Source of the DNA: an uncultured Chloroflexia bacterium
Lineage (GTDB): Bacteria; Chloroflexota; Limnocylindria; QHBO01
Length of the DNA stretch: 64,000 nucleotides
Reading direction: 5' to 3'
NCBI GenBank assembly: GCA_963695195.1
Contig: CAVOGE010000007.1
Coordinates: 408,494-472,493, forward strand
Under the pieces are notes generated by a model, which saw nothing but the letters and a program-made list of their open reading frames with translations, was not told the origin of the DNA and made no database searches. A program made the translations under genes and the position numbers. Position 1 is the stretch's first letter. The number at the start of each line of letters is the position of its first letter. This document shows, in pieces, positions 30,930 through 64,000 of the stretch.

Positions 30930-30930
30930 G

Positions 30931-36204: not shown

Positions 36205-36205
36205 C

Positions 36206-36943: not shown

Positions 36944-36947
36944 CGGC

Positions 36948-37943: not shown

Positions 37944-38019
37944 GGTGGTACTCCGTGATGCTCAGGTTCGGAGGAGGTCCACCTAGTATGCCATCGGCCG
38001 TGCCGCGGGCCCCGGTCGC

Positions 38020-39384: not shown

Positions 39385-39501
39385 GGGGACTCCTTACCGA
39401 TGATGGACCTGGGCGGTACGGAGCAGGCTATCGGCCGCCCGGGCTGAGCGCATCCCCCAGGCGGCGGCCCGTCTACGCGACTTGTTGTGCAGTCTGCACA
39501 A

Positions 39502-40536: not shown

Positions 40537-40549
40537 TGGCAGGGCGAGC

Positions 40550-41734: not shown

Positions 41735-41780
41735 GATCGGCCGAGTCTAGCAGGGCACCCCGTGGGTCACGCCTGTACGA

Positions 41781-43154: not shown

Positions 43155-43198
43155 GGTGCCACAAGGTCGATGCGCGCAAAGGCGCTAGCATCGGACGC

Positions 43199-44347: not shown

Positions 44348-44360
44348 TCCCGAGCCAGAA

Positions 44361-45812: not shown

Positions 45813-46015
45813 GACCAGCCGCCGGTGTGACGCAGGCGGACCTCAGCCCTCCCGCTCGCCAGTGTAGGGGTCGGGCGACGACATGCGCAAAGGTACTAAC
45901 CACACTCGAACAACCTTCTGGCGCATGGATGCACCACCTTGCTCGGAGGGCCGGAGCGTGCCGTTTGCTAGAATCAAGCCCCGCCAGCCTCCCCGACGTC
46001 CCATTTGCAGGTGCC

Positions 46016-48532: not shown

Positions 48533-48537
48533 GCGCC

Positions 48538-50001
48538 TTGGTGGGGCATCCGCGGCGCCCGGCAGTCGCGGCACCGCTGACGATCGGTGCGGCCGTCGGA
48601 TTGGCGCTCCTGGTCATCGCAGGGTCGCAGGCCTCGACGGCGATCATGGCCGCCGCGGCCGTGGGGCTGGTCGTGGTGGCGTCGGCCGCGTCCCTTGCAT
48701 GGCCCCGAGCGGTCCTGATGGCTGTCGCGCTTTCGCCAATCCTGGATCGCTACCTGATCCCCGGGCCGTCGTCGCCAGGGGCAGAGATCCTGACCCACTT
48801 CCTGTCAGAGGCCCTGCTGGTCGGCGTCGGCGGCGTACTCATCGTGCAGGCATGGCGGAGGGGCACGCTGCGGACCGCGCTGGCCCATCCGACCATCGGG
48901 CTGGGGCTCGGATTCGTGCTCCTGTCGGTAGGGTCGGCCGTGTTGAACGCGGTGCCCGGCGAACAGGCCGTGGCCGGAATCGGCTTCACCATCGACGCGG
49001 TCGGCCTGTTCGTACTGGCGCGGATCGTTGGTTTCACACCGCTCCAGGCGAGGCATGCGATCGGGTGGCTGGTGGGCATCGCCCTTCTGGCGGCTGTTGT
49101 CACCACGGCGCAGGCAGTCCTCTCACCCCACCTGCTCGGCTTCTCCTCCCTTCAGGGCCGGTACGGCGAGGTCTACCGCCTTGCCGCCTTCTTCGGGGAT
49201 CCGAACACGCTGGCAGCGTTCCTGTCTGCCGCGATCCCGTTCACGCTCTTCGCCGCAACCGGTCTGGGAGCAGCACGCGGCCGCCGCCTAGCCCTGGCCG
49301 GCGCGACGCTGCTGGTCCTGGCGCTATGGCTGTCGTTCTCTCGAGGCGGGTGGCTGGGTGCAGTCGGCGGCTTCGCCCTTGCCTCGTTCCTGCTCGATCG
49401 CCACGCCCTGAGACTCGGGCTCGCCGTGGTGCTGGTCACGCTGGTGGCCGCCATGCTGATGCCCCGGGATCTGCTGTGCGATACCTGCGAGGAGCGCCCC
49501 GACCTGCTCGGCTCCACCTTCGGCCGCCTCGACACCGTTGGTGAGGGGCGTGACCTGCGCACGCTCTTCGCCCTCAACGCGCTTCCGATCATCGGCGACC
49601 ATCCCGTGCTCGGCGTGGGGCCCGGCAGATACGGGGGAGCGGCGGCGGACATCTTCGGGACGCCGGTCTATGCGGAGTACGAAACCGATGAGCTCTTCGT
49701 GAATCCCACCCAGCGCACCGTCGACGACTTCTGGCTGCACCTGGTGGTCGAGGGCGGCGTCGCTGGACTCGTCGTATTCGGCGGGATGATCGGAGCGACG
49801 CTGCGGCCGATGCTGCGCGTCGCCCGCACCGCGGCCGGCTCGCGACGCCTGTTGCTGGCCGGTAGCGTGGGAGCGATCGCGGCGCTCACCATCAACTCGC
49901 TGACCACCATGCTGCTCGAGGCGAACAGCATGGCGTTCCTCTTCTGGCTGCTCCTCGGGATCGGTTCGCTGCTCGCGGTGGTATCCGACCGGGAGGGCTA
50001 G
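48538..50001 (+). CDS. O-antigen ligase / Wzy-like family membrane protein, second copy
   Basis: Polytopic. WLSFSRGGWLG is the conserved Wzy_C-type motif. A TTG/GTG start lies just after the upstream stop. Confidence 0.65.
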   Translation: MVGHPRRPAVAAPLTIGAAVGLALLVIAGSQASTAIMAAAAVGLVVVASAASLAWPRAVLMAVALSPILDRYLIPGPSSPGAEILTHFLSEALLVGVGGVLIVQAWRRGTLRTALAHPTIGLGLGFVLLSVGSAVLNAVPGEQAVAGIGFTIDAVGLFVLARIVGFTPLQARHAIGWLVGIALLAAVVTTAQAVLSPHLLGFSSLQGRYGEVYRLAAFFGDPNTLAAFLSAAIPFTLFAATGLGAARGRRLALAGATLLVLALWLSFSRGGWLGAVGGFALASFLLDRHALRLGLAVVLVTLVAAMLMPRDLLCDTCEERPDLLGSTFGRLDTVGEGRDLRTLFALNALPIIGDHPVLGVGPGRYGGAAADIFGTPVYAEYETDELFVNPTQRTVDDFWLHLVVEGGVAGLVVFGGMIGATLRPMLRVARTAAGSRRLLLAGSVGAIAALTINSLTTMLLEANSMAFLFWLLLGIGSLLAVVSDREG

Positions 50002-50711
50002 AACTGCCGGCCGGTGATGATCTGCCCGAGCGTGCGGAAGATGAGTTGCAGGTCGAACCAGAAGGAGCGCCGGTCGATGTAGGCCAGGTCGAGCGCGACC
50101 CCTTCATCGAAGCTGACCTTCCCCCAGGCGGTCGCCTGCCACAGGCCGGTCAGCCCAGGGATGACCGACAGGCGGCGCAGATGGCGCTCCTCGTAGACCT
50201 CGACCTCGTACGGGATCGGCGGGCGGGGCCCGACCAGGCTCATCTCGCCGCGCACGATGTTGATCAGCTGGGGCAGTTCGTCGAGGTGCGATCGGCGCAG
50301 AAAGGCGCCCAGCCGCGTGACACGCGGGTCCGCCGCGATCGGAACCCAAACCGCCTCGGAGCGTCCAGGACCGGTCGGTTCCATCTCGGCGCCATCGCGG
50401 CGGATCAGGTCACGGACGTGCGCCTGGTGGCTCTGCTGATCCGCAGCAGAGAACATGCTCCGGAACTTGTAGACCGTGAACGGACGTCCACCCAGGCCCA
50501 GGCGCTGCTGGCGGAAGAGGATCGGGCCGCCCGACTCGATGATGATGGCCACCGCGACCGCGACCAGGACCGGCGAGACGAGCACCAGTCCAAGGGATGC
50601 GGCAACGACGTCCAGGGCGCGTTTCGCGGCCCGATAGCCGAGCGGCGTTGGCGCGACCGGCACCGACACCGATGCGTCCGGTCCCCCGCGCACGCGGGAC
50701 TCCGAGGCCAT
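49998..50711 (-). CDS. short-form bacterial sugar transferase (WcaJ/PglC-like polyprenyl-phosphate hexose-1-P transferase)
   Basis: Single N-terminal TM, then [11 protein letters not shown]...[21 protein letters not shown]...PGLTGLWQ. The 5' part of ORF 49998..51053 is junk. Confidence 0.85.
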
Positions 50712-50741
50712 CAGCGCGTGGACTCCTCCATCAATGCGTGG

Positions 50742-50818
50742 TGGTCGGGGCGGCCCGATTCGAACGGGCGACCTCCTGCTCCCAAAGCAGGCGCGCTGCC
50801 AGGCTGCGCCACGCCCCG
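50742..50818 (-). tRNA. tRNA-Pro (anticodon UGG)
   Basis: Reverse complement CGGGGCG-TG-GCGC-AGCCTGGCAGCGC-G-CCTGC-TTTGGGA-GCAGG-AGGTC-GCCCG-TTCGAAT-CGGGC-CGCCCCG-ACCA forms a complete cloverleaf. Confidence 0.85.
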
Positions 50819-51083
50819 CCGTTTCGCGCTCAGTATCGCCGGGTCGCACCGGTGAGCGGGCCGCAATGCTCGCACACCCGCTGCGCTGGCGCTGGATCAG
50901 CCGGCCAGAGGCCTGGGCGCCGGCCAGTTCCCGGTCCACCTGCACGCAGAAGTTGGCGATTGACGCCGGTGGGTGGGCCGCATACTGTCCGCACGTCGCG
51001 CGACTTGCACCGGCGCCGCCAACGGATCTGTTGGGGTGTTCCGCCGTCGCCACGATCGAGCGATGCGGAGGACAGTGTCGACC

Positions 51084-51560
51084 ATGCGCCTTACCCGGTT
51101 CCCGGCTCTCATCGCGGTTCCACTCCTCGCGCTCATGCTGGCAGCCTGCAGCGCCGGAAGCCCCTCGCCCTCAACGGACGATGGTGGCGGCGGCGGAGGC
51201 GGCGAGAGCACGCCGGCAGCCACGCCCGACAACGGTGGCGGGGGCGGCGGCGACGTCGAGCAGGTGGCCGAAGATCTCGTTCCCCCGAACTCTTCGCAGC
51301 TCAGCCAGACGAATTCCGAGGGTGTCATCTGGACCGTGTACGAGTCCACGGACTCACCCGAATCGCTGAAGAACTTCTACGAGAACGCGATTCCCCAAAC
51401 AGGAATGCAGGTCTTCAGCACCTCGACCGTGGAAGACACCTACTCGTGGGTCTTCGCCCAGGACGACGGTTCGTCGTTCGGCGGGTCGGTCACGGTTGGC
51501 CCGGCGTCGGATGGCGGCAGCGGCTCGTCGGTCATCGTGATCGTGAGTGACGGCGGCTGA
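51084..51560 (+). CDS. hypothetical Gly-rich lipoprotein
   Basis: Signal peptide and lipobox (LALMLAACSAG), poly-Gly linkers, and a small C-terminal domain. Confidence 0.45.
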   Translation: MRLTRFPALIAVPLLALMLAACSAGSPSPSTDDGGGGGGGESTPAATPDNGGGGGGDVEQVAEDLVPPNSSQLSQTNSEGVIWTVYESTDSPESLKNFYENAIPQTGMQVFSTSTVEDTYSWVFAQDDGSSFGGSVTVGPASDGGSGSSVIVIVSDGG

Positions 51561-51671
51561 TCGCACCTCGCTTCCCGTAGGGCGCTAACGCCCGGTGGTT
51601 CATCCGCCGGGCGTTAGGTATCGAGCTCGACCCCGTCGCGCCGGTCAACGCCTCCTGCGTTGCGGGCCCGG

Positions 51672-52832
51672 TCACTGCCGCGCCGCGAGTCGCTCCACGA
51701 TCTCCACGTAGCGGGCAGCCTGGGCGACCCAGTCATACGCGGCCGCCTGGCGTCGGGCTTCGCTGCCAAGTGCGGCCGCGGCGCGGGGATCGGCCGCCAG
51801 CCCCACGATGGCGGCGGCCAGCGCGCCGGGATCAGCGCCGGGCACGAACCGCATGGCGTCGTCCGTGAAATGAGCGCGGAAGGTGGCGAGATCGCTGGCG
51901 ATCACCGGCGTGCCCATGGCAGCCAGCTCGAGCAGCTTGGTTGAGAGGGAGTACTGCAGGTACGGCTCGGGGAGGGTCGGCACCAGGCCGACATCCGCGC
52001 CGGCGATCAGTGCCGGCAGGTCGTCCATCGCCACCGGTCCGTTGATTCTCACGCGGTCCGCAGTGCCGGTTCGCGCTACGGATCGCTCCAGCGCTTCGCG
52101 ATGCGGCCCGTCCCCATAGATGTCGAGGCGAAGTGGAAGGGCATCGCCGATGCGGGCGACCGCCTCCACCAGCACCTCACTGCCGTAGATCCGCTGCAGG
52201 CTCGAGTGGTGGATCAGCCGCAGCTCGCCATCCTCCATGAAGCCCCGGCGCGGGTGGCGCGACGGGTCGAAGAGGCGAGGATCGGCGCTATTCATGACCA
52301 CCGAGATCCTGTCCGGCGAAACGCCGCGCCTGATCGACAGCTGTCGCAGCGGCTCGTGCACGGTGATCAGCTCATCGGCAACCGCGGCCGAGGCGCGAGC
52401 GGCCAGGGCAACCAGCGGCAGCAATGCGCGTCGCGCTCCGCTCCCGAAGCGGTCGCGATAGAACTCGGGCATGTCCTCGTGGAGGTCGAGCAGCAGCGGC
52501 ACACCGCCGAGGCGCAACGGCGCCGCCGCAAAGGCAAGGACGTCCGGAACGGTCGCCACCTGCACCAGCCGATAGCGCCGCCGCCGGTGCTCGCGCGCCA
52601 GCCTGACCGCTGCGATCCCGCCAAAGGCCAGGTACTCGGCGAGATGGCCGGCCAGCCCGACGACGCCGCGCCGCACGGGGAGGCGGATCACGCGAACCGA
52701 TTCGATCAGCTCCTCGGCCTCCTCGCCGTCGGCGCGCAGGACGAACAGGTCGACCTCGTGACCGGCACGGACCAGCGCATCGGTCTGTCGACGCAGGCGC
52801 GGATCGCCGGGATAGACCGCGTGGGCGACCAT
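51672..52832 (-). CDS. glycosyltransferase family 4
   Basis: MVAHAVYPGDPRLRRQTDAL N-terminus and a C-terminal GT4 region. The start may instead be the TTG at 52847. Tightly coupled to mazG. Confidence 0.75.
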   Translation of the reverse strand: MVAHAVYPGDPRLRRQTDALVRAGHEVDLFVLRADGEEAEELIESVRVIRLPVRRGVVGLAGHLAEYLAFGGIAAVRLAREHRRRRYRLVQVATVPDVLAFAAAPLRLGGVPLLLDLHEDMPEFYRDRFGSGARRALLPLVALAARASAAVADELITVHEPLRQLSIRRGVSPDRISVVMNSADPRLFDPSRHPRRGFMEDGELRLIHHSSLQRIYGSEVLVEAVARIGDALPLRLDIYGDGPHREALERSVARTGTADRVRINGPVAMDDLPALIAGADVGLVPTLPEPYLQYSLSTKLLELAAMGTPVIASDLATFRAHFTDDAMRFVPGADPGALAAAIVGLAADPRAAAALGSEARRQAAAYDWVAQAARYVEIVERLAARQ

Positions 52833-52843
52833 CGCGAGGCGGC

Positions 52844-53983
52844 TCAACGTGACTTCACCTCGTTCCAGAGCTGGTCCTTCTCGTCGGAGTCGAGCTCGGC
52901 GAGCGCCAGGCCGCGCTCCGCGGCGAGCGCCTCGACGCGGGCGTAGCGCTCGACCCAGCGGTGGTTGGCCGCCCGAAGAGCCTCCTCCGGGTCGAGCTTC
53001 ATCCAACGCGCCAGATTGACCGCCGCGAAGATGACGTCACCGAATTCGTGCAGTCGCTCGTCGCGGCCCGCGTCGCCTTCGGTCGCCGCCGCCTGGTGCA
53101 GCTCGTCGAGCTCCTCCGCGACCTTCTCCCAGACGCCATCGATCGCGGGCCAGTCCCAGCCGAGCGAGGAGGCTCGCTCCTGGATCTCGCGACTGGCCGC
53201 CAGGGCGGGCAGGGCGCGGGCGACGCCGGCGAAGGCGGACGGCTCGTGGCCGGCATCGGTCCGCTCGGCGGCCTTGATCGACTCCCAGTTGCGCAGAACC
53301 TCCTCGGCGCCGCTCACCTCCACGTCCCCGAAGACGTGCGGGTGACGCCGGATGATCTTGGCGCCGAGGGTGCGATAGACATCGGTCAGGTCGAAGGTGC
53401 CGTCCTCCGCGGCGAGCTGCGCGTGCAGGATGATCTGCAGGAACAGGTCCCCAAGCTCCTCGATGAGCTCGGCCGGTCCCCCGTGCTCGATCGCGTCGAC
53501 CAGCTCATACGCCTCCTCGAGCACAAACGGGCGCAGGCTGGCGTGCGTCTGCTTTCGATCCCACGGACAGCCGTTCGGCGCGCGCAGACGCGCTGAGATG
53601 GCGGCCATGCCGTGCGGCGAGGCGAGGTTGTCGACCAGGGGCAGGGGCGGCACCAGCCAGTGACGGGCAGCCAACTCGGGGTCGGCGAGGGCATGAAGTG
53701 GCGAGGTCAACCCCTCCGGCAGGGCGCGCAGCACGTGTCCCGGCGGGTAGAGGGCGGCCAGCACCGCGAGAGCACTGGCCCGTGCATGGCGCCCTGGCAG
53801 AACGGAACCTCGGGCTTCATCCTGCTGCGGCGAGGCCGATGCGTCAGCGGCGAGCAGAACGAGCGGGATCGACGGATCGAAGGCGAGGGCGGACAGTCGA
53901 GCCACCGATACCACCTGGATCCCGTCGGCCGGGTCGAGCCCGGCCGCCGCAAGGAGCTCATCGACGCCGGTTGACGACGTCAC
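52844..53983 (-). CDS. mazG: nucleoside triphosphate pyrophosphohydrolase MazG (two-domain form)
   Basis: EEAYELVDAIE and a second LGDVIFAAVNLARW motif are MazG-type all-alpha NTP-PPase repeats. Confidence 0.8.
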   Translation of the reverse strand: MTSSTGVDELLAAAGLDPADGIQVVSVARLSALAFDPSIPLVLLAADASASPQQDEARGSVLPGRHARASALAVLAALYPPGHVLRALPEGLTSPLHALADPELAARHWLVPPLPLVDNLASPHGMAAISARLRAPNGCPWDRKQTHASLRPFVLEEAYELVDAIEHGGPAELIEELGDLFLQIILHAQLAAEDGTFDLTDVYRTLGAKIIRRHPHVFGDVEVSGAEEVLRNWESIKAAERTDAGHEPSAFAGVARALPALAASREIQERASSLGWDWPAIDGVWEKVAEELDELHQAAATEGDAGRDERLHEFGDVIFAAVNLARWMKLDPEEALRAANHRWVERYARVEALAAERGLALAELDSDEKDQLWNEVKSR

Positions 53984-53994: not shown

Positions 53995-55722
53995 TCAGGC
54001 GGCGCTGGATGCCGTGAAGTCAGGATCGACCCAGATCTGGGAGCTGGACCGCACCTCGGCGATCCACCGCGTGAAGCCGGACTGGCGCACGCGTTCGATC
54101 TGCTGCTTCGGCACCCAGCGAAGGTCGGAACTGTCGACGAGTTTGAAGATCCAGAACCCGTTGCCAGTCTCGATGACGTCGCTGATCTGATTCGGCGTCG
54201 TCATCTCGAAGATGGCGTGGCTGCGGTCCTCCTCGAGCTGGTACGGGATCACCCACCCGAGTTCGCCGCCCTTGGCGGCGGTGCTGCTGTCCTCGCTCTG
54301 CTCCCTTGCCAGCTGGGCGAAGGCCTCAGGGTCGTCACGCAACTGTTCCACCAGCCTGTCCGCCTGGTCCTGCGCAGTCGTGCGCGTATCGGTGACCTGG
54401 ATGACGTGGTAGCCGAACTGCGTCTTCACCGGCTCGCTCACCTCACCGACTGTCAGGTCGGCGATGGCAGCCTCGAATTCGGCCACGAAGTTGCCGGAGG
54501 TCGGGTCATACCAGCCCAGGTCGCCCCCTTTCGATCGGCTCCCCGGGTCGTCACTGTCGGCGGCGATGACATACCAGTCGGCATCGGGCTCGAGTGCGTC
54601 GTCTCGGAAGCCGTTCGCGCGCGCCAGCGCGGCAGCCCATTGATCCTCGGTCGCCGCGCTCTGGTCATCGGCGCCGGGGATCGGCTGCGCCAGGTAGTGG
54701 CGCACGCGCTGCTTCGGAATCGGGACGCCCTGGTCGGCGGCGATGAAGATCTGGGACACGTTCCGCTGTGGCTGGTAGCGGACCATCACGACATTCTCGA
54801 AGTGCTCGCGGAACTTCTGGCGCAGCAGTTCGCTGCGCACGTAGGCGCGATACTCGGCCTCGGTCACCCCGGCTCCCGACAGCAGATCGATCAGCGGCTG
54901 GTCCGGTCCGGCAGGGCGGCGCTCGTCGAGTCGCAGGATGTGGTAGCCGGTGTCGTCCCTGGTCGGGCCGAGCAGGTCGCCGGCCGTGGCGTTCGCATCG
55001 GTTACTTCGGCGAAGTAGTCCGCATACTGGAAATCGGCCTCCTGGATCCAGCCGATGAGGCCATCAAACGCGGCGGCAGGGTCGTCGGACCTGTCGCGGG
55101 CGACGGTCGCGAAGTCGGCGCCGCCCTGGAGCTCGGCGAAGATGGCGCCCGCCTCCCCCTCGGCGCGCGCCCAGTCAGCATCGGTCGGCGTGTCGCCGGC
55201 CTGGGCGTCGTCCGGCAGCGCGTCCACGCTGACCACCGACAGCTTGATGCGCTCCTGCAGCGATCGCCGGCGTGTGATCTCGGCATCCAGCTCGGCGTCG
55301 GATATGGTCAGGCCGTACTTGCCGGCGGCGTGCTCCAGGGCATTGCCGAGCACGAGCGACTCTGTCGCCGTCCCGGCGAGAGCCTGCAGCTGATCCGTGA
55401 CGACGCTCAGCTGCTGGTTGATGATCGAGTCGCGCGTTCCGCCCAACTGGCCCTGCAGATCAAGGCCGGCGGCCTGGAGCTCCGATCCGATCGCGTCCAT
55501 CCGCTTGGTGAGGTCGTCGACGGTGTAGGCATCGCCGTTGGCATAGGCCACCTGGCGCAGGTGAGCGGCGTAGTGATCGTTCCAGACGGTCGCCCCGAAG
55601 ATGCCGACCGCGACCGCGATGGCTACCGCAAAGCCGCCGATGACCAGCTGCTGGCTGCGCAGCTCGTCCTGCCAGCGCGGACGGTGTTTTCGGTCGAGGA
55701 CCGGTCGGCTACGAAAGGACAT
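53995..55722 (-). CDS. membrane-anchored peptidyl-prolyl cis-trans isomerase (parvulin; SurA/PrsA-like)
   Basis: N-terminal TM, long chaperone-like region, and a parvulin core near the C-terminus (GGDLGWYDPTSGNFVAEFEAA...FGYHVIQV). Confidence 0.8.
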   Translation of the reverse strand: MSFRSRPVLDRKHRPRWQDELRSQQLVIGGFAVAIAVAVGIFGATVWNDHYAAHLRQVAYANGDAYTVDDLTKRMDAIGSELQAAGLDLQGQLGGTRDSIINQQLSVVTDQLQALAGTATESLVLGNALEHAAGKYGLTISDAELDAEITRRRSLQERIKLSVVSVDALPDDAQAGDTPTDADWARAEGEAGAIFAELQGGADFATVARDRSDDPAAAFDGLIGWIQEADFQYADYFAEVTDANATAGDLLGPTRDDTGYHILRLDERRPAGPDQPLIDLLSGAGVTEAEYRAYVRSELLRQKFREHFENVVMVRYQPQRNVSQIFIAADQGVPIPKQRVRHYLAQPIPGADDQSAATEDQWAAALARANGFRDDALEPDADWYVIAADSDDPGSRSKGGDLGWYDPTSGNFVAEFEAAIADLTVGEVSEPVKTQFGYHVIQVTDTRTTAQDQADRLVEQLRDDPEAFAQLAREQSEDSSTAAKGGELGWVIPYQLEEDRSHAIFEMTTPNQISDVIETGNGFWIFKLVDSSDLRWVPKQQIERVRQSGFTRWIAEVRSSSQIWVDPDFTASSAA

Positions 55723-55821
55723 GGGGGCAGCGCGTTCTCCGCAGGGCGGGAGAGGATGGCGTCAACATCGGGCGAGGCGCCATGCTAGCCGAAGAGGGCC
55801 ATTCCTGCCATCGCCGACGCC

Positions 55822-56598
55822 TCAATGGGAGCGGCGAACGGCGTCGCGCATCGCCTCCCAGCGCAGGCGGAGGACGAGCACCAGCGCCTCGCCGACGATC
55901 CCACCGCGCATCTTCGAGCGGCCGGCAACACGCTCCCGAAAGATGATGGGGACCTGGACGATCTTCGCGCCGCGACGGTGCGCCCACCAGGTCGTCTCGA
56001 CCTGGAAGCCATATCCACTCGCGCTCGACTCGCGCAGCCGAACTGCTTCCAGCACCTCTCGACGCCAGGCCTTGAAGCCGCCGGTCAGGTCGCGATATGG
56101 GAGGAGCAGCACCGTCCGCGCGAAGAGCGTGCCGGCCCGGCTGATCAGTTGGCGGTAGAGCGGCCAGCCGACCGTCCCACCGCCAGGCAGGTAGCGCGTG
56201 CCGAGCACCAGATCCGCATCGTTCATGAGCGGCGTCAGGAGGCGCGGCAGATCGGCAGGGTCGTGGCTGAAGTCGGCATCCATCTGCACCACCGCCCGCG
56301 TCCCGGGACGGTCGAGCGCCCAGCGGAATGCGTCGCGGTAGGCCACCGCCAGGCCTTCCTTGGCCGATCGGTGCAGAACCACGACGCGGGGTTCGTCAGC
56401 GGCCAGCGCATCGGCCAGCTCCCCGGTCCCGTCCGGCGAGCTGTCGTCCACCACCAGCACGCTCGCCTCTGGCAGGGCGGCCAGCACGGCGGTGACGAGT
56501 CCCTCCAGGTTCTCGCGCTCGTTGTAGGTGGGCACGACTACGACCACGCCGCTCCCCGCGGCAAGTCCGACGCGACGCTGCACGCCCTCCATGGTCAA
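55822..56598 (-). CDS. polyprenol-monophosphomannose synthase (GT2; Ppm1/DPM1-like)
   Basis: VVVPTYNERENL, VLVVDDSSPDGT and VQMDADFSHDP are GT2 DXD-region signatures of dolichyl/polyprenyl-phosphate mannosyltransferases. Confidence 0.8.
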   Translation of the reverse strand: MTMEGVQRRVGLAAGSGVVVVVPTYNERENLEGLVTAVLAALPEASVLVVDDSSPDGTGELADALAADEPRVVVLHRSAKEGLAVAYRDAFRWALDRPGTRAVVQMDADFSHDPADLPRLLTPLMNDADLVLGTRYLPGGGTVGWPLYRQLISRAGTLFARTVLLLPYRDLTGGFKAWRREVLEAVRLRESSASGYGFQVETTWWAHRRGAKIVQVPIIFRERVAGRSKMRGGIVGEALVLVLRLRWEAMRDAVRRSH

Positions 56599-57869
56599 CG
56601 GCCGATGCCGAGGTAAGCCACGCCGGCAGCCTCGACGCTGGTACGGTCCAGCGCGTTACGGCCGTCGATCAGCAGCTCCAGCTCCGGGATCTCCCGCAGG
56701 TCGATCGACCGGTAGGCGTCGTGGCCGGCCTGCACGATGGCGCCGCGCACCGGCACTGGCGCGCCCAGATCGTACGGCTCGAACCCGAGTGAGCGGATGT
56801 GCTCGTCCGAGAAGTACGGGTCGTGCCCGTAGACGATCGCCCCGGCGGCTCGCAGCTCGTCACGGATCTTGAAGGCCGAGCTGAAGGCATCCTCGCGAAC
56901 GTCAGCGCGATACGCGATGCCCAGCACCAGCACGCCGGTACCGTCGAGGGCGCCGATCCGATCACGAAGCTGGTCGACCGCCCAGCCTCCCATCTCCTCG
57001 TTGATCTGGCGCGCCAGGGGCGGGAGACGAAGGTCGGGCTCGTCGTTGAACAGGAAGTGGGGGTAGACCGGGATGCAGTGGCCGCCCACACCGACCCCGG
57101 GGGCGTGAATGTGGCTGAACGGCTGCGAGTTGGCGGCCGCGATCACCTCGGTGACGTCGATGCCGCGCCTCGCCGCATAGCGGGCGTACTCGTTGGCGAG
57201 CGCAATGTTCACGTCGCGGTAGGTCGTCTCGGCGAGCTTGGTCATCTCCGCGGTCTCGGCATTCGAGACGGCACGAACCTCGGTCCCCTCTGCCAGGGCG
57301 GACCGATAGAACTCGACTGCACGGCGCGTGCCTTCCGGACTCGTGCCGCCCACGATCTTCGGGTAGCGCTGGAGGTCCAGCAGGACCCGACCGACCAGGA
57401 CGCGTTCGGGCGAGAAGGCGAGGTGAAAATCGCGGTCGAGGTTGAGGCCGCTGCCGGCCTCGAGCATTGGGCCGAAGCGATCGCGGGTGGTGCCGACCGG
57501 CAGCGTCGTCTCGTAGATCACGATCGTCCCCGGCTGCAGGCCGGCCGCAATCTCGCGCGTGGCTGCGTCGATCGGCCCGAAGTCGATCTGGCGACGCTCG
57601 TCCACCACAACCGGGACGATGACGACCACGACGTCCGCCTCCCGCACACCCGCAGCGTCATCCGTCGTCGCACGCAGGCGGCCGGCGGCCACGAGCCCGG
57701 GCACCTGTGTCGTCAGTGCGGGCTCATCGTCGTGCGGAGACTCACCGCGGTTGATCGCATCGACGATCCACGCGGCCACGTCACAGCCGATCACGTCGTG
57801 GCCGCGGCCGGCGTACTGGACGGCGAGCGGAAGGCCGATATGGCCGAGCCCGACGACCGCGACCTTCAC
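56595..57869 (-). CDS. UDP-N-acetyl-D-hexosamine 6-dehydrogenase (UDP-glucose/GDP-mannose dehydrogenase family; WbpA/WecC-like)
   Basis: MKVAVVGLGHIGLPLA Rossmann motif and a GGHCIPVYP catalytic Cys region. 424 aa. Confidence 0.9.
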   Translation of the reverse strand: MKVAVVGLGHIGLPLAVQYAGRGHDVIGCDVAAWIVDAINRGESPHDDEPALTTQVPGLVAAGRLRATTDDAAGVREADVVVVIVPVVVDERRQIDFGPIDAATREIAAGLQPGTIVIYETTLPVGTTRDRFGPMLEAGSGLNLDRDFHLAFSPERVLVGRVLLDLQRYPKIVGGTSPEGTRRAVEFYRSALAEGTEVRAVSNAETAEMTKLAETTYRDVNIALANEYARYAARRGIDVTEVIAAANSQPFSHIHAPGVGVGGHCIPVYPHFLFNDEPDLRLPPLARQINEEMGGWAVDQLRDRIGALDGTGVLVLGIAYRADVREDAFSSAFKIRDELRAAGAIVYGHDPYFSDEHIRSLGFEPYDLGAPVPVRGAIVQAGHDAYRSIDLREIPELELLIDGRNALDRTSVEAAGVAYLGIGR

Positions 57870-58912
57870 GCCAGCACCTCCCGCAGCTCGTCGCCGGCAA
57901 CGACACGCCCATCGCGGGCGGAATCGACCATCGCTCGCGCCAGCAGGAGGGCGACCATCGCCTCGTGCGGGTCGACCGGCGGCGGCCCGTCCTCGCGCAC
58001 CGCGCGCGCGAACTCGGACAGCTCCACCACCAGCGGCTCCTGGCGGCGAATCACTCGACGCGTCATCTCGCCCTCCGCGACCGATGCCACGCCTGCCGCC
58101 CCTCCGTTCCCGCTGAGCCGCCGCGCATCTGGATTCGGATAGAAGACCAGATCCTGGGCGAGATAGTCGGCGACGTACATGCCGCGCTCGCCGGTGACGC
58201 TCAGGGTGCGGACCTTGGTCGGCGTGAGCCAGTTGATATCGAGCACGCCGACCGCGCCATTCGCAAATTTCATGAGCCCCACGAAGAGGTCCTCGTGATC
58301 GGTGTGGATGCGCTGCTCGGTCTCGGCATAGAGGCGGACCGGGTCCGAGCCGAGCAGGAATCGCATCACATCGAGATCATGCGGCGCCAGGTCCACCACC
58401 ACGCCGACGTCGCGGATGCGAGCGGGGAAGGGGCCGAGCCGCGTGGCGCGGATCTCAAAGATGCGCCCGAGCTCACCTGCCGCCAACCGCCGTCGCAGTT
58501 CCAGGATCGCCGGGTTGAAACGCTCGATGTGCCCGACGGTCAGCATCCGGCCAGCGCGCCTGGCAGCATCCATCATCTGCTCGGCCTCTGCGCGGCTGGC
58601 GGCGATCGGCTTCTCGACGAGAACGTGGGTGCCGGCTCCCAGCGCCGCGAGCGCAATCGGCAGGTGGAGCGAGGTCGGAGCCACGATGCTCAGCAGGTCG
58701 AGCGACGTGGAGGCAAGCATCTCCTCGGCCGAGGCGTAGCCCTCCGCCGCGCGGCCCTGGGTCGCTCGACGGACTGCCTCCGGCTCAGGATCGGCGACGG
58801 CGACCAGCTCGACCCCGTCGACCGCCTCGTCCCACACGCGCACGTGGTTGCGACCCATCATGCCAAGGCCGACCACGCCGGCCCGCAACGCTCGCGAGCC
58901 AGAGCCGCTCAT
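57866..58912 (-). CDS. Gfo/Idh/MocA family oxidoreductase (WbpB-like UDP-GlcNAcA 3-dehydrogenase)
   Basis: RAGVVGLGMMGRNHVR N-terminal Rossmann motif and an EKP motif (VLVEKPIA). Start at the Met giving [21 protein letters not shown] coupling on both sides. Confidence 0.85.
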   Translation of the reverse strand: MSGSGSRALRAGVVGLGMMGRNHVRVWDEAVDGVELVAVADPEPEAVRRATQGRAAEGYASAEEMLASTSLDLLSIVAPTSLHLPIALAALGAGTHVLVEKPIAASRAEAEQMMDAARRAGRMLTVGHIERFNPAILELRRRLAAGELGRIFEIRATRLGPFPARIRDVGVVVDLAPHDLDVMRFLLGSDPVRLYAETEQRIHTDHEDLFVGLMKFANGAVGVLDINWLTPTKVRTLSVTGERGMYVADYLAQDLVFYPNPDARRLSGNGGAAGVASVAEGEMTRRVIRRQEPLVVELSEFARAVREDGPPPVDPHEAMVALLLARAMVDSARDGRVVAGDELREVLA

Positions 58913-61152
58913 GCCTTGGCCCCGTCGATGGGACCGAGCTTGGCCGCGACCTCGTTGACCGCGGCGATCACCGTCTGCGCCTCCGCATCGGAAAGGGAGG
59001 GATGAACCGGAATCGACACGACCTGGTCGGTCAGCCGCTCGGCCACCGGGTAGTGCTGCTCGCCGTAGCCCAGCGCCACGAACGGCTTCTGATGATGGAC
59101 CGGGATCGGGTAGTAGATGCCTGTCCCGACGCCGCGCTCGCGGAGTTGCTCGACGAACTCGTCTCGGCGGTTCACCCGAATCGTGTACTGATGGTAGACG
59201 TGCGTGACCCCGGGCTTCACCCACGGGGTGATCACGCCGCGCAGTTCGGCGTCGTAGCGCGCGGCGATCGCGCGGCGACGCTCGTTGTAGCCGGCCAGCT
59301 TGGGTAGCTGGCCGAGCCCGATGGAGGCGTGGATATCGGTCATGCGGAAGTTGTAGCCGACCGTGTCATGGTGGTAGCGCACCTTCATCCCGTGTTCGCG
59401 CAGGAGCCGCGCGCGATCCGCCACGTCGCCGTCCGCCGTGGTCAGCATGCCCCCCTCGCCGGTGGTCATGTTCTTGGTCGGGTAGAACGAGAAGCATCCC
59501 GCTCCCCAGGTACCCGAGCGGCGATCCGCGATGGCGGCACCGTGGCTCTGGCACGCGTCCTCCACCACCGCCAGGCCGTGGCGGTCGGCGATGGCGGCGA
59601 TGGCCGTCATGTCGGCCGGCTGCCCATACAGGCTGATCGGCATGATCGCCCTGGTGCGCGGCGTGATGGCGGCCTCGACAAGGGCCGGATCGATGTTGAA
59701 GGTCGTCTCCTGCACGTCGACGAAGACCGGAGTCGCGCCGGTGTAGAGGATGCTGTTGGCGCTGGCGATGAAGGTGAACGGGACGGTCACGACCTCGTCG
59801 CCGGGACCGATGCCGTAGCCCAGCAGGGCGAGGTGCAGCGCGGTCGTGCCCGAACTGGTGGCTACCGCGTGCGGGGTCCCGATGAACTCGGCAAAGCGCT
59901 CCTCGAGCTCGCGGACGCGCGCGCCCTGGGCGAGCGCGCCGGAACTGAGCGCGCTCCAGACCAGGTCCTTCTCCTCGTCGCCCATCTGCGGGCGTGCGAT
60001 CGGGATCACGATGTGGATGCCTCCGTTGGGTGCGACGGGATGCCGACCGGCAGCCGAGCCTCGCGTCGGTGGTGATGTCGTTCGAGAGCTGACACGATAC
60101 GGTCCCGCGGCGTTGCCGTCGCCGAACAGGTCAGGACGTGCCCGCCCGCGATCCATGGCGAGCGCGTCGGCCAGGACCTCCCGCAGCCCGGCCGGATCGT
60201 TACCGATCACGCGATTCCAGCCAGCGGCCACCGTCTCGGGCCACTCGGTCTCGGTGCGCAGGGTGAGGCATGGGACGCCGGCCAGGTACGCCTCCTTCTG
60301 CACGCCGCCGGAGTCGGTGAGGATCGCCGATGCGGAGCGCTCCAGGGCAACCATCTCGAGGTAGCCGACCGGCGGCACCGCGACGATGCCGACCCCCAGT
60401 GCCAGGCCAGCGCGCTCCATGCTCGCGCTCGTCCGGGGGTGCATCGGGAAGAGCACCGACCGGTCGCCCGCCGCCGCCGCGATGCTGTCCAGCCAGGCTG
60501 CGAGACGCTCGGGATCGTCCACGTTCTCGGCGCGGTGGAGCGTCAGCAGCAGGTAGCCGGGTCGGTCACGTGCGGCGGAAGGCACCTGGTCACCTGACCG
60601 GCTCTCGGCCCAGCGATAGGCGTCGACCATCACGTCACCGACGTATTCGGAGCGCGCGGCGAGGCCCTCGACGGCGAGGTGTGCCATCGCCGTCTGGGTC
60701 GGAGCCAGGAGCAGGTCGGCAAGGTGGTCGGCGACGACGCGGTTTCGCTCCTCGGGCATCTCCCGGTTGAATGAGCGGAGCCCCGCCTCGACGTGGGCGA
60801 GCCACGGCCGGGATCCGTCGGGGTACGCGATCTTGGATGCGGCAACCGCGGCGGCCAGCGTCGAGTTCGTGTCGCCGTAGACCAGGACGCCATCGGGGCG
60901 GTGCTCGCCGATGATCGGCTCCAGGCGGCGCAGCATCTCGGCGGTCTGGGCCCCGTGCGACCCGCTGCCGACCTCAAGGTTGACGTCGGGCTCAGGCATC
61001 TCCAGGTCACGGAAGAAGGCCGCGCTCATGGCGTCGTCGTAATGCTGTCCGGTGTGCACCAGCAGCTCGTCGTGCGAGCGCCGCAGCGCGCGACTCAGCG
61101 GCGCCGCCTTGATGAACTGCGGCCGCGCGCCCACGACCGTCAGGACCCTCAT
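58909..61152 (-). CDS. bifunctional fusion: UDP-GlcNAc 2-epimerase-family domain (WbpI-like) + DegT/DnrJ/EryC1/StrS sugar aminotransferase domain (WbpE-like)
   Basis: One stop-free frame. The N-domain runs from [19 protein letters not shown] to [10 protein letters not shown] (Epimerase_2). A ~25-aa Ser/Pro linker follows. The C-domain starts [15 protein letters not shown] and contains the PLP-lysine region ([15 protein letters not shown]). The upstream 200 codons of ORF 58909..61776 are junk. Confidence 0.75.
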
Positions 61153-61754
61153 CCCCCGGCCTCGCCGGCGCGCGGAGGGAAGTGCGTCCCGCAGCGGGGG
61201 CATGGGCCATGGAAAGCCGCGCCGTCCTCTCCATCGCGCAGCGGCTGACCGCACGGGCAGGCGCTCCCGACTCGGCGTGCAGGATTGCCGACGGCCAGCT
61301 CGTAGTCGGCCAGGTCGCGCGTCACCACGCTGCCGGAGCCGACCATCGCCCAGCGCCCGATCGTCACGCCCGGCAGGATGGTGCTGTTGGCGCCCAGGGC
61401 CGCCCCGGCTCGGACCAGGGTGGGGCTCACCTCCCAGTCGGCATCGGTCTTGAGGGTGCCGTCCGGGTTGACCGCGCGCGGCACCTTGTCGTTGGTGAAG
61501 CAGACGTGCGGACCGATGAAGACACCATCCTCCACGGTCACCCCTGCGTAGGCGCTCACGTTGTTCTGGATCTTCACCCGGTCGCCTATGACCACGCCGG
61601 CGTCGACGTAGACGTTCTTGCCGATGACGCAGTCCGACCCGATCTGCGCGCCCTCGCGTACCTGTGCGCCATGCCAGATGCTCGTGCCGCTGCCGATCGA
61701 GGCGGTGTCTGCCACGTCGGCGCTCGGGTGGATGCGCGCAGGACGGTTGTTCAT
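61149..61754 (-). CDS. hexapeptide-repeat N-acetyltransferase (WbpD-like UDP-3-amino-sugar N-acetyltransferase)
   Basis: [43 protein letters not shown] is left-handed beta-helix. ATGA overlap with the fusion gene. Confidence 0.8.
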
Positions 61755-61785
61755 GCGTGCTCCATTGGGGCGGCAATTGTATCCA

Positions 61786-62415
61786 TCAGCCGTGGTCCCC
61801 GGCCACGCCAGGATCATCAAGGAGCTGTCGGAGGCGCGGAAGCGCATCTGCCACTGCGCGGCCGCGATGCGAGATCGCATCCTTCTCCACCTCCGGCAAC
61901 TCGGCCGTGGTGACGCCGCTCGGGAGCAGGAAGATCGGGTCGTAGCCAAAGCCGGCCCGGCCTCGCCGTTCGGTCGCCAATGTCCCCTCGACCACGCCGC
62001 TGAAGAGCTCGACTCGAGGGTCGCGCGGCGTCCCATCCGGGCCTGAACCGGGGACAGCCAGCGCAAGCCAGCAGACCATGCGCGCGCGGCGGTCCACGGC
62101 TCCCGTGACCGCCTCCAACAGCTGGTCCGGGTCACCACCTACTCGGCCGAACCGGGCGCTCCTCACCCCGGGACCCCAGGCGAGCGCCGCCACCTCGATC
62201 CCCGAGTCATCCGCGAGTGCGGGAAGGCCCGATCCGCGAGCGTAGGCAACCGCCTTGGCCGCTGCATTCTCGGCGTAGCTGTCGTGCGGTTCCGGGACGT
62301 CAAGGTGGAGGCCCAGCTGCTGCGGGGTCACGATGCTCCCGGAGATCTCGCCGAGGAGTCGAGCGAACTCGCGCTGCTTGCCGACATTGGTGGTGGCCAG
62401 CAGGAGCCTGCTCAC
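61786..62415 (-). CDS. rdgB: non-canonical purine NTP pyrophosphatase (RdgB/HAM1)
   Basis: [14 protein letters not shown] and FGYDPIF...[16 protein letters not shown] motifs. GTGA overlap with rph. Confidence 0.85.
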
Positions 62416-63146
62416 TCGGACGCGGGAGCCTCGATGGCCGCCTGCTGGAGTGCGAAGAGCTGGCGGATCCCGCCACCCGCGAGGTCGAGGAGCTGGTTCA
62501 TATGCTCGCGGCTGAAGGAGTGCTGCTCCCCGGTCCCCTGCACTTCGATGAATCGGTCGTCGTCGGTCATGACGACGTTGAAATCCACCTCGGCGGTCGA
62601 GTCCTCTGCGTAGTCGAGGTCGAGCAGCAACTGTCCGCCGGAGATCCCCACGCTGACCGCCGCGACCTTGCCGACCAGCAGGTGCCCCATCCCGAACTTG
62701 GTGAGCGCGCGTGCCAGGGCGACGTATGCGCCGGTGATGCTCGCCGTGCGCGTTCCGCCGTCCGCCTGGATCACGTCGCAGTCGAGGGTGATGGTCCGCT
62801 CGCCGAGGCGCGGCAGGTCGATGCACGCGCGCAGCGATCGTCCGATCAGTCGCTGGATCTCGTGGGTTCGACCCCCGATCCGCCCGGTCTGGGCCTCGCG
62901 CTGGCTCCGCTCGGTCCCCGCCCGCGGCAGCATGCTGTACTCAGCAGTGATCCAGCCCTTGCCCTTGCCGCGCATCCAGCCCGGAACGCGATCCTCGATG
63001 GTGGCGGCACAGATGACGCGCGTGTCGCCCACTCGGATGAGGACCGATCCCTCGGCGAACTTGAGGTAGTCGGGCACGATCTTGACCGGGCGCAGCTGGT
63101 TGACAGCGCGCCCCTCGGCACGACGCGATGCGGCGATGGAGGTCAT
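62412..63146 (-). CDS. rph: ribonuclease PH
   Basis: Highly conserved across the full length ([19 protein letters not shown]...[18 protein letters not shown]...). Confidence 0.95.
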
Positions 63147-63225
63147 GACGCCGATTCTACGCGCCGCGCCCCCCGGTGCGGTTCGCCGCGAGGGGCCGGG
63201 GATGCGCTACCGTCAGGCCCGAGCC

Positions 63226-64000
63226 ATGCGTCCCCTTCGCCTGCTGGTCATCAGCGCCCGCTATCCGACATCCGACCGCCCCGCGGCCGGGGCGTTCGTG
63301 CGCGACCGCCTGGCCGATCCTGCGATCACCACCACGGTGATCGCGCCACGCGACTATGCGCACGCGGGTTGGCGCCGCTACCTGTCCATGACCTGGGCAG
63401 CGCTGGCGCGGCGCGGCCGCTATGACGGTGTCGAGGGACACTTCGTGGTGCCCGCCGGCGCGGTGGCCTTGCTGGCGGCCCGGGTCCGTCGCCTTCCGCT
63501 GGTGGTCTTCGCGCACGGCAGCGACGTGCGCGAGATCGCCCACCGCGGCCGGGCAATGCGGTGGCTGGCACGCCGGGTGATCCGCGGTGCCGACGCGATC
63601 GTTGCCAACTCGGAGGACACGGCTGCGCTGGTACGTGCACTCGGTGGCGACCCGATCGTCATCGCGCCGGGCGTCGACCGGGCGCGCTTCCACGTGCTGC
63701 CGCGTCCAGCCACGCGGCGGGTTCTCTACCTGGGCGGCGACCTCTCGTCCAAGGGCATCGAAACGGCCCGCGCACTGGCCGACACCCTGCTCGGACCGGG
63801 AATTCGCGAGGTCGATCCGGCGGAGGTGCCGGAGCTGATGGCGTCACACGACGTGGTGCTGGTCCCATCCCAGGCGGAGGGGTTCGGCCTCGTTGCCGCC
63901 GAGGCGATCGCCGCGGGCCGCTGGGTGGTGGCCAGCGACACCGGCGGGCTGCGTGACGTGGTGCGTGACGGAGTCAGCGGAACGCTGGTGCGCGACGGCG
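63226..64000 (+). CDS. glycosyltransferase family 4, 3' end beyond window
   Basis: MRPLRLLVISARYP start. SQAEGFGLVAAEAIAAGRWVVASDTGGLRD (EX7E region). No stop before the window end, so it is absent from the ORF track. Confidence 0.7.
   Translation, partial: MRPLRLLVISARYPTSDRPAAGAFVRDRLADPAITTTVIAPRDYAHAGWRRYLSMTWAALARRGRYDGVEGHFVVPAGAVALLAARVRRLPLVVFAHGSDVREIAHRGRAMRWLARRVIRGADAIVANSEDTAALVRALGGDPIVIAPGVDRARFHVLPRPATRRVLYLGGDLSSKGIETARALADTLLGPGIREVDPAEVPELMASHDVVLVPSQAEGFGLVAAEAIAAGRWVVASDTGGLRDVVRDGVSGTLVRDG

Follow-up and report, generated by a model that had tools for sequence, protein, structure and literature searches.

The 748-codon open reading frame that appears to join a UDP-sugar 2-epimerase to a DegT-type aminotransferase is very probably two separate genes of a conserved Limnocylindria cassette, merged by one extra base, and not an evolved bifunctional protein. 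The frame lies within a 64,000-nucleotide stretch of DNA (the window) from an uncultured Limnocylindria bacterium of the Chloroflexota. It builds on what is directly observed: the anatomy of the reading frames, the gene arrangement in relatives and the families to which the enzymes belong. In this reading the cassette consists of five genes, for an LbH acetyltransferase, a 2-epimerase, an aminotransferase, a Gfo/Idh/MocA 3-dehydrogenase and a 6-dehydrogenase, with a GT2 gene after them (Table 1), and the genes are translationally coupled through 4-nt start/stop overlaps. The extra base at 60101-60106 shifts the end of the epimerase gene; the open frame then misses the epimerase TGA (60008..60006) and runs in frame into the aminotransferase gene, whose ribosome-binding site, GGAGG, and start codon, GTG (60009..60007), are still present.

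Table 1. Features of the operon, of the epimerase-aminotransferase junction and of a second epimerase gene in the window.
Feature	Coordinates	Strand	Evidence
LbH N-acetyltransferase, WbpD/WlbB-like, 201 aa	61149..61754	-	Pfam Hexapep, E = 5.5e-29
WbpI/WlbD-type UDP-GlcNAc3NAcA 2-epimerase gene (predicted activity)	60006..61152	-	Pfam Epimerase_2 (PF02350), E = 2.1e-87
Single extra base	60101..60106	-	Only gap column against nearest relatives
Epimerase true 3' end, +1 frame, 30-letter tail + TGA	60006..60100	-	Three-frame translation
Shine-Dalgarno-like GGAGG, 10 nt upstream of aminotransferase GTG	60020..60024	-	Read from sequence
GTGA overlap: aminotransferase GTG (60009..60007) and epimerase TGA (60008..60006)	60006..60009	-	Sequence
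DegT/DnrJ/EryC1 sugar aminotransferase, 366 aa	58909..60009	-	Pfam DegT (PF01041), E = 1.2e-126
Gfo/Idh/MocA dehydrogenase, 348 aa, candidate sugar-nucleotide 3-dehydrogenase (WbpB/WlbA-like)	57866..58912	-	Pfam GFO_IDH_MocA and C-terminal domains
UDP-HexNAc 6-dehydrogenase, WbpA/WecC class, 424 aa, GTG start	56595..57869	-	TIGR03026, 316 bits
GT2 glycosyltransferase, polyprenyl-phosphate sugar synthase-like, 258 aa	55822..56598	-	Glycos_transf_2, E = 8.9e-30
Second epimerase, UDP-GlcNAc-type Leu/Gln/Arg (VIKLA, VQGDT, VTERP)	19977..21110		Alignment

The long frame itself, as reported in the first-pass annotation, is real. On the minus strand, 58909..61152 has an ATG start and no stops over 748 codons (747 residues and the terminal stop), and Pfam identifies Epimerase_2 at residues 26-349 and DegT_DnrJ_EryC1 at residues 389-732. 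Its length is poor evidence of fusion, because this DNA is 70% G+C. Without a stop for 955 codons, the frame extends as far as 61776 and crosses the LbH gene out of frame, and the aminotransferase frame is open across the epimerase gene for hundreds of codons in many relatives as well. In the window, a single base inserted at any point of this epimerase gene would thus be enough for a clean "fusion". The case carries a caution: with off-frames open for hundreds of codons at high G+C and 4-nt overlaps between operon genes, a single indel can silently merge neighbouring genes into a plausible "bifunctional" ORF.

Homology to 2-epimerases ends at about residue 349 of the 747-residue ORF, at ...FGDGNAA. 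The Epimerase_2 alignment leaves the last 8 profile positions unmatched (6-339 of 347), and the match to the wecB model TIGR00236 is also incomplete (1-355 of 366). Among the matches listed from a library of 1.84 billion proteins, nearly all stand-alone epimerases align up to query residues 349-351 and themselves run 15-25 residues beyond the end of the alignment. The epimerase gene is 1147 nt long (3n+1), equal to 382 codons and one extra base. At 60101-60106 the window reads GGGACC and its nearest relatives GGAAC, which places the base to within 6 nt. When the whole 5160-nt operon is aligned by blastn with loci L083, L084 and L085, this is the sole gap column; over 55822..63146, about 7.3 kb of coding sequence, comparison with contigs of 86-88% nucleotide identity again gives one gap only, the same extra base. 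A MAFFT alignment with locus L001 has a one-base gap at the same site. The suggested frameshift check at 59990-60090 missed this site by about 10 nt, and on comparative evidence a frameshift does in effect separate the two domains.

Because of the extra base, the final 31 epimerase codons are out of frame, and in the 747-residue ORF 60006..60100 is read as an out-of-frame "linker" of about 31-33 residues. In the +1 frame the tail is collinear with those of L083-L086 and aligns with the final α-helix, Ala350-Lys360, of the Thermus enzyme. The ORF as written lacks this helix in intact form, and a one-base deletion at 60101-60106 restores it. Read in the shifted frame, the first 45 nt past the insertion contain 8 synonymous changes and a single non-synonymous one between the window and L083; read in the fused frame, they contain 0 and 8. 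This comparison was used in place of GC3, for which a hand count over the 96-nt tail gave about 66% versus 58% for the two frames, a difference too weak to use. Selection thus acts on the shifted, unfused frame. Furthermore, the GGAGG before the aminotransferase start is also found in L083-L086 and L001.

The two genes are separate ORFs in all 26 Limnocylindria-type loci that contain the junction (22 from the genome collection and 4 metagenome contigs), and a fused epimerase-aminotransferase occurs in none of the 26. An xTGA overlap joins them in 24 of these loci (20 of 22 from the genome collection and all four metagenome contigs). The metagenome contigs were recovered with a degenerate pattern based on the N-terminal sequence of the aminotransferase; when metagenomes were scanned for the exact junction sequence of the window, allowing a gap of variable length, there was no match. 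The idea that the relatives represent the derived state was rejected, as the helix is in frame in the solved Thermus enzyme and in all distant homologues. The aminotransferase N-terminus, V(M)IPIARPQMG, is that of a separate gene, and the stand-alone homologues P0001 and P0121 (368 residues, 72% identity) begin at the same residue.

Single polypeptides with Epimerase_2 and DegT domains do exist in nature, as a database search proposed in the first-pass annotation revealed (P0011, P0124 and P0007). There are also natural epimerase-LbH fusions (P0083, P0216 and others, 525 residues). WbpI-type residues are present in P0083, P0216 and P0011, and UDP-GlcNAc-type residues in P0124 and P0007. All five differ from the window ORF in carrying the GDGxAxxRI helix in frame before the linker (GERII in P0011, GERIV in P0124 and AQRII in P0007), which the window ORF is without. 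In P0011, P0124 and P0007 the aminotransferase half has an N-terminus clearly unlike that of the window protein and, by eye, resembles other DegT subfamilies. Four further proteins of 770-880 residues from the representative library (P0125, P0127, P0176 and P0265) were considered as epimerase fusions and rejected, being DegT-DegT proteins.

The original proposal was an evolved, selected WbpI-WbpE enzyme that unites non-consecutive pathway steps. It would account for both domains lying on one stop-free ORF, and pathway-enzyme fusions are indeed found elsewhere (P0083, P0216 and P0011, together with a single instance of a DegT-epimerase, P0005). However, such an enzyme would have its conserved terminal epimerase helix out of frame, a "linker" that is conserved coding sequence read in a shifted frame, and an internal TGA/GTG overlap and ribosome-binding site that have been kept; none of the 26 relatives is fused, and selection is seen in the unfused frame. 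We regard this origin as very unlikely. The fusion is not borne out, as one extra base at 60101-60106 leads the frame past the conserved TGA/GTG overlap.

The extra base is somewhat better explained as a consensus or assembly error than as a very recent lesion. GGGACC contains no long homopolymer, which counts against error. Genes in the window were modeled from codon usage and about 45 predicted proteins were searched against Pfam; their matches are unbroken, nearly all extend across the whole profile, and no other split gene was found among them. The assembly is therefore not generally indel-prone and a real mutation is a plausible alternative; the split-gene test gives no help in choosing between the two.

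If the base is real, a 747-residue polypeptide would be produced and some activity could remain. This chimera, created by a recent frameshift, is improbable as the protein that functions in the organism, whether by itself or supplemented by aminotransferase initiated at the internal GTG. The intactness of the other genes among the roughly 45, the lack of a long homopolymer at the site and the complete aminotransferase half are all compatible with it, and a C-terminally tagged Thermus epimerase folded, indicating that C-terminal extensions are tolerated. Yet what is lost is the helix linking domain 2 back to domain 1, its substitute contains prolines, and the ancestral stop, start and GGAGG are still intact. 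Past the insertion, nearly every substitution is synonymous when read in the old frame, so the insertion event has left no evolutionary trace. In addition, the epimerase gene is intact in all 26 relatives, and a consensus error is a likelier cause than a harmful lesion that has become frequent in an environmental population. More doubtful again is a real base whose product is an ~80 kDa, helix-less WbpI-type epimerase tethered to the aminotransferase with both activities surviving. If true, this would be a very young natural fusion of non-consecutive pathway steps, seen before any adaptive change.

Programmed +1 ribosomal frameshifting or transcriptional slippage could in principle restore a normal epimerase from the DNA as written. 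Nothing specific speaks for it, other than an intact downstream frame. Slippage needs a long run of A/T or another homopolymer, and GGGACC is no slippery run. Sites of the prfB type rely on a 0-frame stop or a rare-codon pause, neither of which is present here, and the relatives encode the epimerase in one frame with no shift. With neither a slippery sequence nor a pause element at the site, this explanation was rejected as scarcely credible.

Reading the epimerase and aminotransferase as two genes merged by a single base, we compared the frame-corrected epimerase with solved structures. It scores 336-337 bits against the Thermus UDP-GlcNAc3NAcA 2-epimerase (8SXY/8SXV), with an alignment that enters the corrected tail, and 268 bits against M. 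jannaschii 4NEQ. E. coli WecB (1VGV/1F6D) and B. anthracis 3BEO give 150 and 130 bits, respectively. The enzyme is thus WbpI-type and not ordinary WecB, as first suggested (337 versus 150 bits). Catalytic and binding residues in the Thermus numbering are Lys17, Asp98, Glu120, Glu132, His208 and Arg209 (PMC10622841); in the operon epimerase, Lys15, Asp94, Glu122, Glu134/Glu135, His206 and Arg207 are invariant alignment columns. Specificity for UDP-GlcNAc3NAcA has been attributed to Ala18 (not Leu/Met), Tyr96 (not His/Gln) and Trp307 (not Arg) (PMC10622841). The operon epimerase has Ala, Tyr and Trp (FIKAA, VYGDT and TETEW), so that it shares both the specificity and the catalytic residues of the Thermus enzyme; it differs by a 6-residue insertion, YPDGSRPW. 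These features support a predicted UDP-GlcNAc3NAcA 2-epimerase activity.

The flanking genes were correctly named in the first-pass annotation (LbH, Gfo/Idh/MocA, UDP-sugar 6-dehydrogenase and a GT2 called "ppm1"), as judged by Pfam and NCBIfam. The best solved match of the LbH acetyltransferase is 3MQG/3MQH (144 bits, E = 4.7e-41, residues 6-191), of which we take 3MQG to be Bordetella WlbB; the next is 4MZU with 119 bits. The aminotransferase covers profile positions 2-359 of 360 in PF01041 and carries a lysine at the usual position of the DegT family, presumably the Schiff-base residue. Its structural matches are 7B0D (288 bits), 2OGA (276 bits), WbpE (3NYU/3NU7, 271 bits), perosamine synthetase (268 bits) and QdtB (264 bits), and by these scores it is no nearer to WbpE than to other sugar aminotransferases. 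Every NCBIfam equivalog match falls under its cut-off.

The Gfo/Idh/MocA protein scores 283 bits against NF040723, an archaeal UDP-GlcNAc 3-dehydrogenase model with a cut-off of 450. Its best structural match is 7BVJ (104 bits), followed by 3Q2I (95 bits) and 3Q2K (93 bits), both of which we take to be WlbA. Structures 3OA2 and 3O9Z, presumably WbpB and Thermus WlbA, are not among its PDB matches at E ≤ 1e-10. The 6-dehydrogenase exceeds the cut-off of the general nucleotide-sugar dehydrogenase model TIGR03026 (189.8) and contains all three Pfam domains. The models and structures nearest to it are UDP-ManNAc dehydrogenases, namely NF040825 (265 bits, cut-off 750), 4R16 (226 bits) and Cap5O (201 bits), the latter two being its best PDB matches. 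Both dehydrogenases lie under the cut-offs of all substrate-specific NCBIfam models, and their substrates and the order of steps are therefore taken from gene context. The GT2 protein has weak NCBIfam matches (AglJ, 62 bits; PpgS, 56 bits), and a GT2 gene occupies the same position in L001.

ATGA or GTGA overlaps had been described at every junction, and three of four agree: LbH/epimerase (ATGA), aminotransferase/Gfo (ATGA) and Gfo/dehydrogenase (GTGA). The fourth, dehydrogenase/GT2, does not, as the GT2 gene starts either at a TTG in a TTGA overlap or at ATG 56592, 2 nt past the stop. The LbH/epimerase ATGA overlap is also present in most relatives. An apparent LbH-epimerase read-through appears in the gene list of the contig that encodes P0004. 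A consensus scan of 55500..63400 for promoters and terminators found none.

The closest known systems are those of the UDP-ManNAc3NAcA pathway, namely WbpA/B/E/D/I of P. aeruginosa, WlbA-D of B. pertussis and the five ORFs of Thermus thermophilus HB27 (PMC10622841), and the window cassette brings together the same five enzyme classes. It differs from these systems in its host, an uncultured Chloroflexota class, in an aminotransferase that is not specifically WbpE-like and in the frameshifted 3' end of its epimerase. The host class is taken as single-membraned; if so, the sugar is not destined for an LPS O-antigen. An archaeal version of the pathway is encoded by MMP0350-0353 and MMP0357 of Methanococcus maripaludis. 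The best NCBIfam models for the two dehydrogenases are archaeal (NF040723 for Gfo and NF040825 for the 6-dehydrogenase), all scoring under their curated cut-offs, and many Methanobrevibacter aminotransferases share 49-53% identity with the aminotransferase half. Were the 3-dehydrogenase to use UDP-GlcNAc as its substrate, which the name of the archaeal enzyme suggests, the steps would follow another order than in the Pseudomonas scheme.

The match to the Thermus epimerase, the specificity residues and the LbH/WlbB match bear out the earlier assignment of the locus as a Wbp/Wlb-type diacetamido-hexuronic-acid cassette. We infer that its product is a UDP-2,3-diacetamido-2,3-dideoxy-hexuronic acid, most likely UDP-ManNAc3NAcA because of the epimerase type; the sequence of steps and the polymer that would accept the sugar are inferred as well. 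The positive result is modest: a complete cassette of this type, with fixed order and overlaps, is conserved across Limnocylindria, an uncultured class from soil and freshwater, and its epimerase has the specificity residues recently defined in Thermus. An acidic ManNAc3NAcA-type sugar is accordingly a prediction for the envelope glycans of Limnocylindria, where it would stand apart from the pyruvylated polymer to which the CsaB-like locus and SLH proteins of the window point. The link between this sugar and SLH binding that had been drawn from Geobacillus is not supported: in G. stearothermophilus, the polymer that contains ManNAc3NAcA is not pyruvylated, and the protein region that binds it is N-terminal and lacks SLH domains (PMC4232325). 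SLH anchoring in the window is better explained by the separate pyruvyl-transferase locus at 19977..23535.

The reading frame at 58909..61152 (-) starts with ATG and is stop-free over 747 codons plus the stop. Pfam places Epimerase_2 at residues 26-349 of its product and DegT_DnrJ_EryC1 at residues 389-732, which confirms the two-domain ORF and the neighboring genes described in the first-pass annotation. Three of the operon's junctions are ATGA or GTGA overlaps, as had been stated for all of them; the fourth is TTGA, or an ATG 2 nt past the stop. The length of the 747-residue ORF is unremarkable, being normal for DNA of 70% G+C. The aminotransferase frame is open for 955 codons (58909..61776, -), running through the epimerase gene and then, out of register, through the LbH gene, and in relatives it frequently lacks stops over hundreds of codons of the epimerase gene. 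Wherever it is open, a single base inserted into the epimerase gene in this lineage would therefore mimic a gene fusion.

Features of the window, with the database matches of the operon enzymes
Feature	Coordinates	Strand	Best matches	Assignment
LbH acetyltransferase	61149..61754	-	3MQG/3MQH, 144 bits	WlbB-like
Aminotransferase			WbpE, 271 bits; another transaminase, 288; DesV-like, 276; perosamine synthetase, 268	DegT family
Gfo/Idh/MocA dehydrogenase	57866..58912	-	7BVJ, 104 bits; 3Q2I/3Q2K, 95/93; archaeal NF040723, 283 (below the cut-off of 450)	Putative sugar-nucleotide 3-dehydrogenase
6-Dehydrogenase	56595..57869	-	TIGR03026 passed; nearest are UDP-ManNAc dehydrogenases, all below cut-off	Nucleotide-sugar 6-dehydrogenase
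GT2	55822..56598	-
Four SLH-domain proteins	11419..18628	-
Second epimerase	19977..21110		Full-length Epimerase_2	UDP-GlcNAc type
Wzx-like flippase	21098..22471
CsaB-like polysaccharide pyruvyl transferase	22489..23535
Bac_transf priming transferase	28408..29829
Second Wzx	32670..34019
Sugar-nucleotide genes	35356..37949
Two LytR_cpsA_psr ligases	41781..43118 and 46040..47437
Second Wzy_C	48565..50001

Past the break, the original frame of the epimerase (+1 relative to the fused frame) reaches a TGA at 60008..60006 that overlaps the GTG at 60009..60007 opening the aminotransferase, a GTGA overlap of the same type as the operon's other junctions. GGAGG lies at 60024..60020, 10 nt upstream of this GTG. 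The span 60006..61152 comprises 1147 nt, or 382 codons plus one base; the frame-corrected epimerase has 381 residues and the separate aminotransferase 366. At the site of the extra base the window reads GCCGCGGGACCGTATC. Profile matches of the fused product end early, 8 positions before the end of Epimerase_2 and 11 before that of wecB. It is without the terminal helix described by Thoden et al. (PMC10622841) and has a Pro/Ser/Arg-rich segment instead. In a representative-protein search (library of 1.84 billion proteins), nearly all of the stand-alone epimerase matches listed end at query residues 349-351, yet these proteins run 15-25 residues further, and stand-alone aminotransferase matches start at query residue 383, which is residue 2 of the match (P0121, P0122).

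A scan of the genome collection places the lineage in Candidatus Limnocylindria (Chloroflexota), with 69-81% protein identity. Epimerase and aminotransferase are separate ORFs in all 22 loci where the two genes are adjacent. In 20 of these, the GTG or ATG that opens (M/V)IPIARPxMG is overlapped by the TGA of the epimerase; in locus L003 the epimerase stop abuts the aminotransferase start, and in L008 the two are 5 nt apart. Most loci also have a 4-nt overlap between LbH and epimerase, and the order rph, rdgB, LbH, epimerase, aminotransferase, Gfo, 6-dehydrogenase, GT2, rotamase, MazG is conserved. Two loci labeled "uncultured Steroidobacteraceae" (Gammaproteobacteria; L003 and L022) carry a Limnocylindria-type operon of the same architecture at ~72% identity and are probably mis-binned contigs.

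Closer relatives, at 86-88% nucleotide identity to the window, were found by a degenerate-pattern scan of metagenome contigs (L083-L086). The alignments of L083, L084, and L085 to the 5160-nt operon contain a single gap column each, the extra base of the window. It is aligned at 60101 (GGGACCGT vs GGAAC-GT), with ambiguous placement within 60101-60106, and it is the sole gap in these three alignments across 55822-63146, all of which is coding. In L086, four additional gap columns offset one another in pairs, one pair in the divergent tail and the other where aminotransferase and Gfo meet. Other gaps against the four contigs lie outside 55822-63146, in intergenic or flanking sequence. In all four, the epimerase TGA sits inside GTGA and the aminotransferase begins there; the +1-frame epimerase tail of the window is collinear with theirs and of equal length. 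Over the first 45 nt past the insertion, the differences between the window and L083 comprise 8 synonymous and 1 non-synonymous in the +1 frame, vs 0 and 8 in the fused frame, indicating that selection acted on the unfused frame. With one extra base in the window and separate genes in its relatives, the epimerase-aminotransferase fusion proposed in the first-pass annotation is not a true evolved trait.

Three observations speak for the extra base being artefactual or of very recent origin: the stop, start, and ribosome-binding site are intact, the old-frame substitutions are largely synonymous, and the whole class conserves the gene. None of the ~45 predicted genes of the window is split, and their Pfam matches are unbroken and nearly all whole-profile. 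A single indel in 64 kb fits the residual error rate of a metagenome assembly and fits the normal pseudogene load of a genome equally well. We lean somewhat toward an error over a real lesion, as a matter of judgement rather than measurement; either way, the product is not a bifunctional enzyme that evolved as such. The lack of a slippery sequence or pause element at the site makes programmed frameshifting unlikely.

The frame-corrected epimerase scores 334-337 bits against ten Thermus thermophilus HB27 structures of UDP-2,3-diacetamido-2,3-dideoxy-glucuronic acid 2-epimerase (8SXY, 8SXV, and others), and the alignment extends into the corrected tail. Scores are 268 bits against the M. jannaschii UDP-GlcNAc 2-epimerase and 130-150 bits against the E. 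coli, S. aureus, and B. anthracis enzymes. Three substitutions, Ala18, Tyr96, and Trp307, fit the Thermus enzyme to its bulkier substrate (PMC10622841). All three residues are present in the operon epimerase (FIKAA, VYGDT, TETEW), vs Leu, Gln, and Arg in the second epimerase of the window; with this internal control, the question of a WbpI- or a WecB-type enzyme is settled for WbpI. Just before its HVEAGLRS motif, the operon epimerase has a six-residue insertion, Y-PDGSRP-W (residues 112-117, approximately 60802..60819, -), which is common to the Limnocylindria proteins P0002 and P0122 and absent in Thermus, P0012, P0014, and P0020.

Among the matches of the other enzymes, 3MQG is presumably Bordetella WlbB, and 3Q2I/3Q2K we take to be WlbA; NF040723 is an archaeal UDP-GlcNAc 3-dehydrogenase model. 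The aminotransferase matches other sugar aminotransferases about as well as WbpE and so is not WbpE-like in particular. Together, the set of five genes and the epimerase specificity residues support a pathway from UDP-GlcNAc3NAcA to UDP-ManNAc3NAcA, and thus the WbpA/B/E/D/I-like assignment made earlier: a known pathway type, here in Limnocylindria. For the earlier steps, substrates and order are what we infer, and an archaeal-style order, in which UDP-GlcNAc is oxidized at C-3 before the other steps, is conceivable. The LbH C-terminus (61149..61250, -) bears a four-Cys motif, CPCGQPL...(15)...CPRCG, that looks like a small zinc ribbon and is mostly covered by the tblastn matches in relatives.

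A 2-epimerase, flippase, CsaB-like, GT4, and Wzy genes together with SLH proteins typically mark a pyruvylated SLH-anchoring polymer. The region 19977..25933 (+/-), which also encodes GT4 glycosyltransferases and a Wzy-like (Wzy_C) protein, and the SLH genes look like such a locus, separate from the Wbp-like operon. The G. stearothermophilus polymer with 2,3-diacetamido-2,3-dideoxymannuronic acid is non-pyruvylated and is bound by an N-terminal region without SLH domains (review PMC4232325); the suggested link of the diacetamido sugar to SLH binding is thus unsupported and its rationale incorrect. Possible acceptors are a second wall polymer, an S-layer glycan, and a lipid-linked glycan made via the adjacent GT2. 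The interval 26109..52853 is dense in envelope-glycan genes, including several GT4s and a PIG-L deacetylase, and any of these could use the operon product.

Fusions of these enzymes do recur in databases. Proteins of 525 residues that begin with an epimerase and end with an LbH domain (P0076, P0081, P0083, P0099, P0115, P0120, P0216) look, from their sequences, like true WbpI-WbpD fusions, which would join consecutive steps of the pathway; P0083 and P0216, whose full sequences were read, have WbpI-type residues and the terminal helix in frame (...YGDGNAAGRIAAIL...), then a linker. Epimerase-DegT proteins comprise P0011 (761 residues), with a WbpI-type epimerase and a DegT N-terminus clearly unlike that of the window aminotransferase, and P0124 and P0007, with UDP-GlcNAc-type epimerases; all three have the helix in frame. 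In P0005 (775 residues, one 4.3-kb contig) the order is reversed, a WbpE-like aminotransferase preceding a WbpI-type epimerase. Judging from P0005 and P0011, aminotransferase-epimerase fusions may exist elsewhere. With the helix in frame before the linker, true fusions look different from the 747-residue ORF.

Further apparent fusions in close relatives (P0003, P0009, P0001; L002, L006) come from visibly frameshift-ridden assemblies, and databases built from these contain artefactual multi-domain entries, P0001, P0003, and P0009 among them. L002 and L006 have many broken or merged operon genes and an epimerase split over three frames; in L002, aminotransferase and Gfo are merged, as are dehydrogenase and GT2. 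In two close relatives, represented by P0004 (JGI contig, 576 residues) and P0002 (L001, 6001..7371), LbH reads into the epimerase in one frame and loses the second Cys pair of its C-terminus; both are probably indel-made pseudo-fusions. The L001 assembly has other suspicious gene calls, for example a single product that combines MreC with RNase PH domains, and its LbH is itself split between frames.
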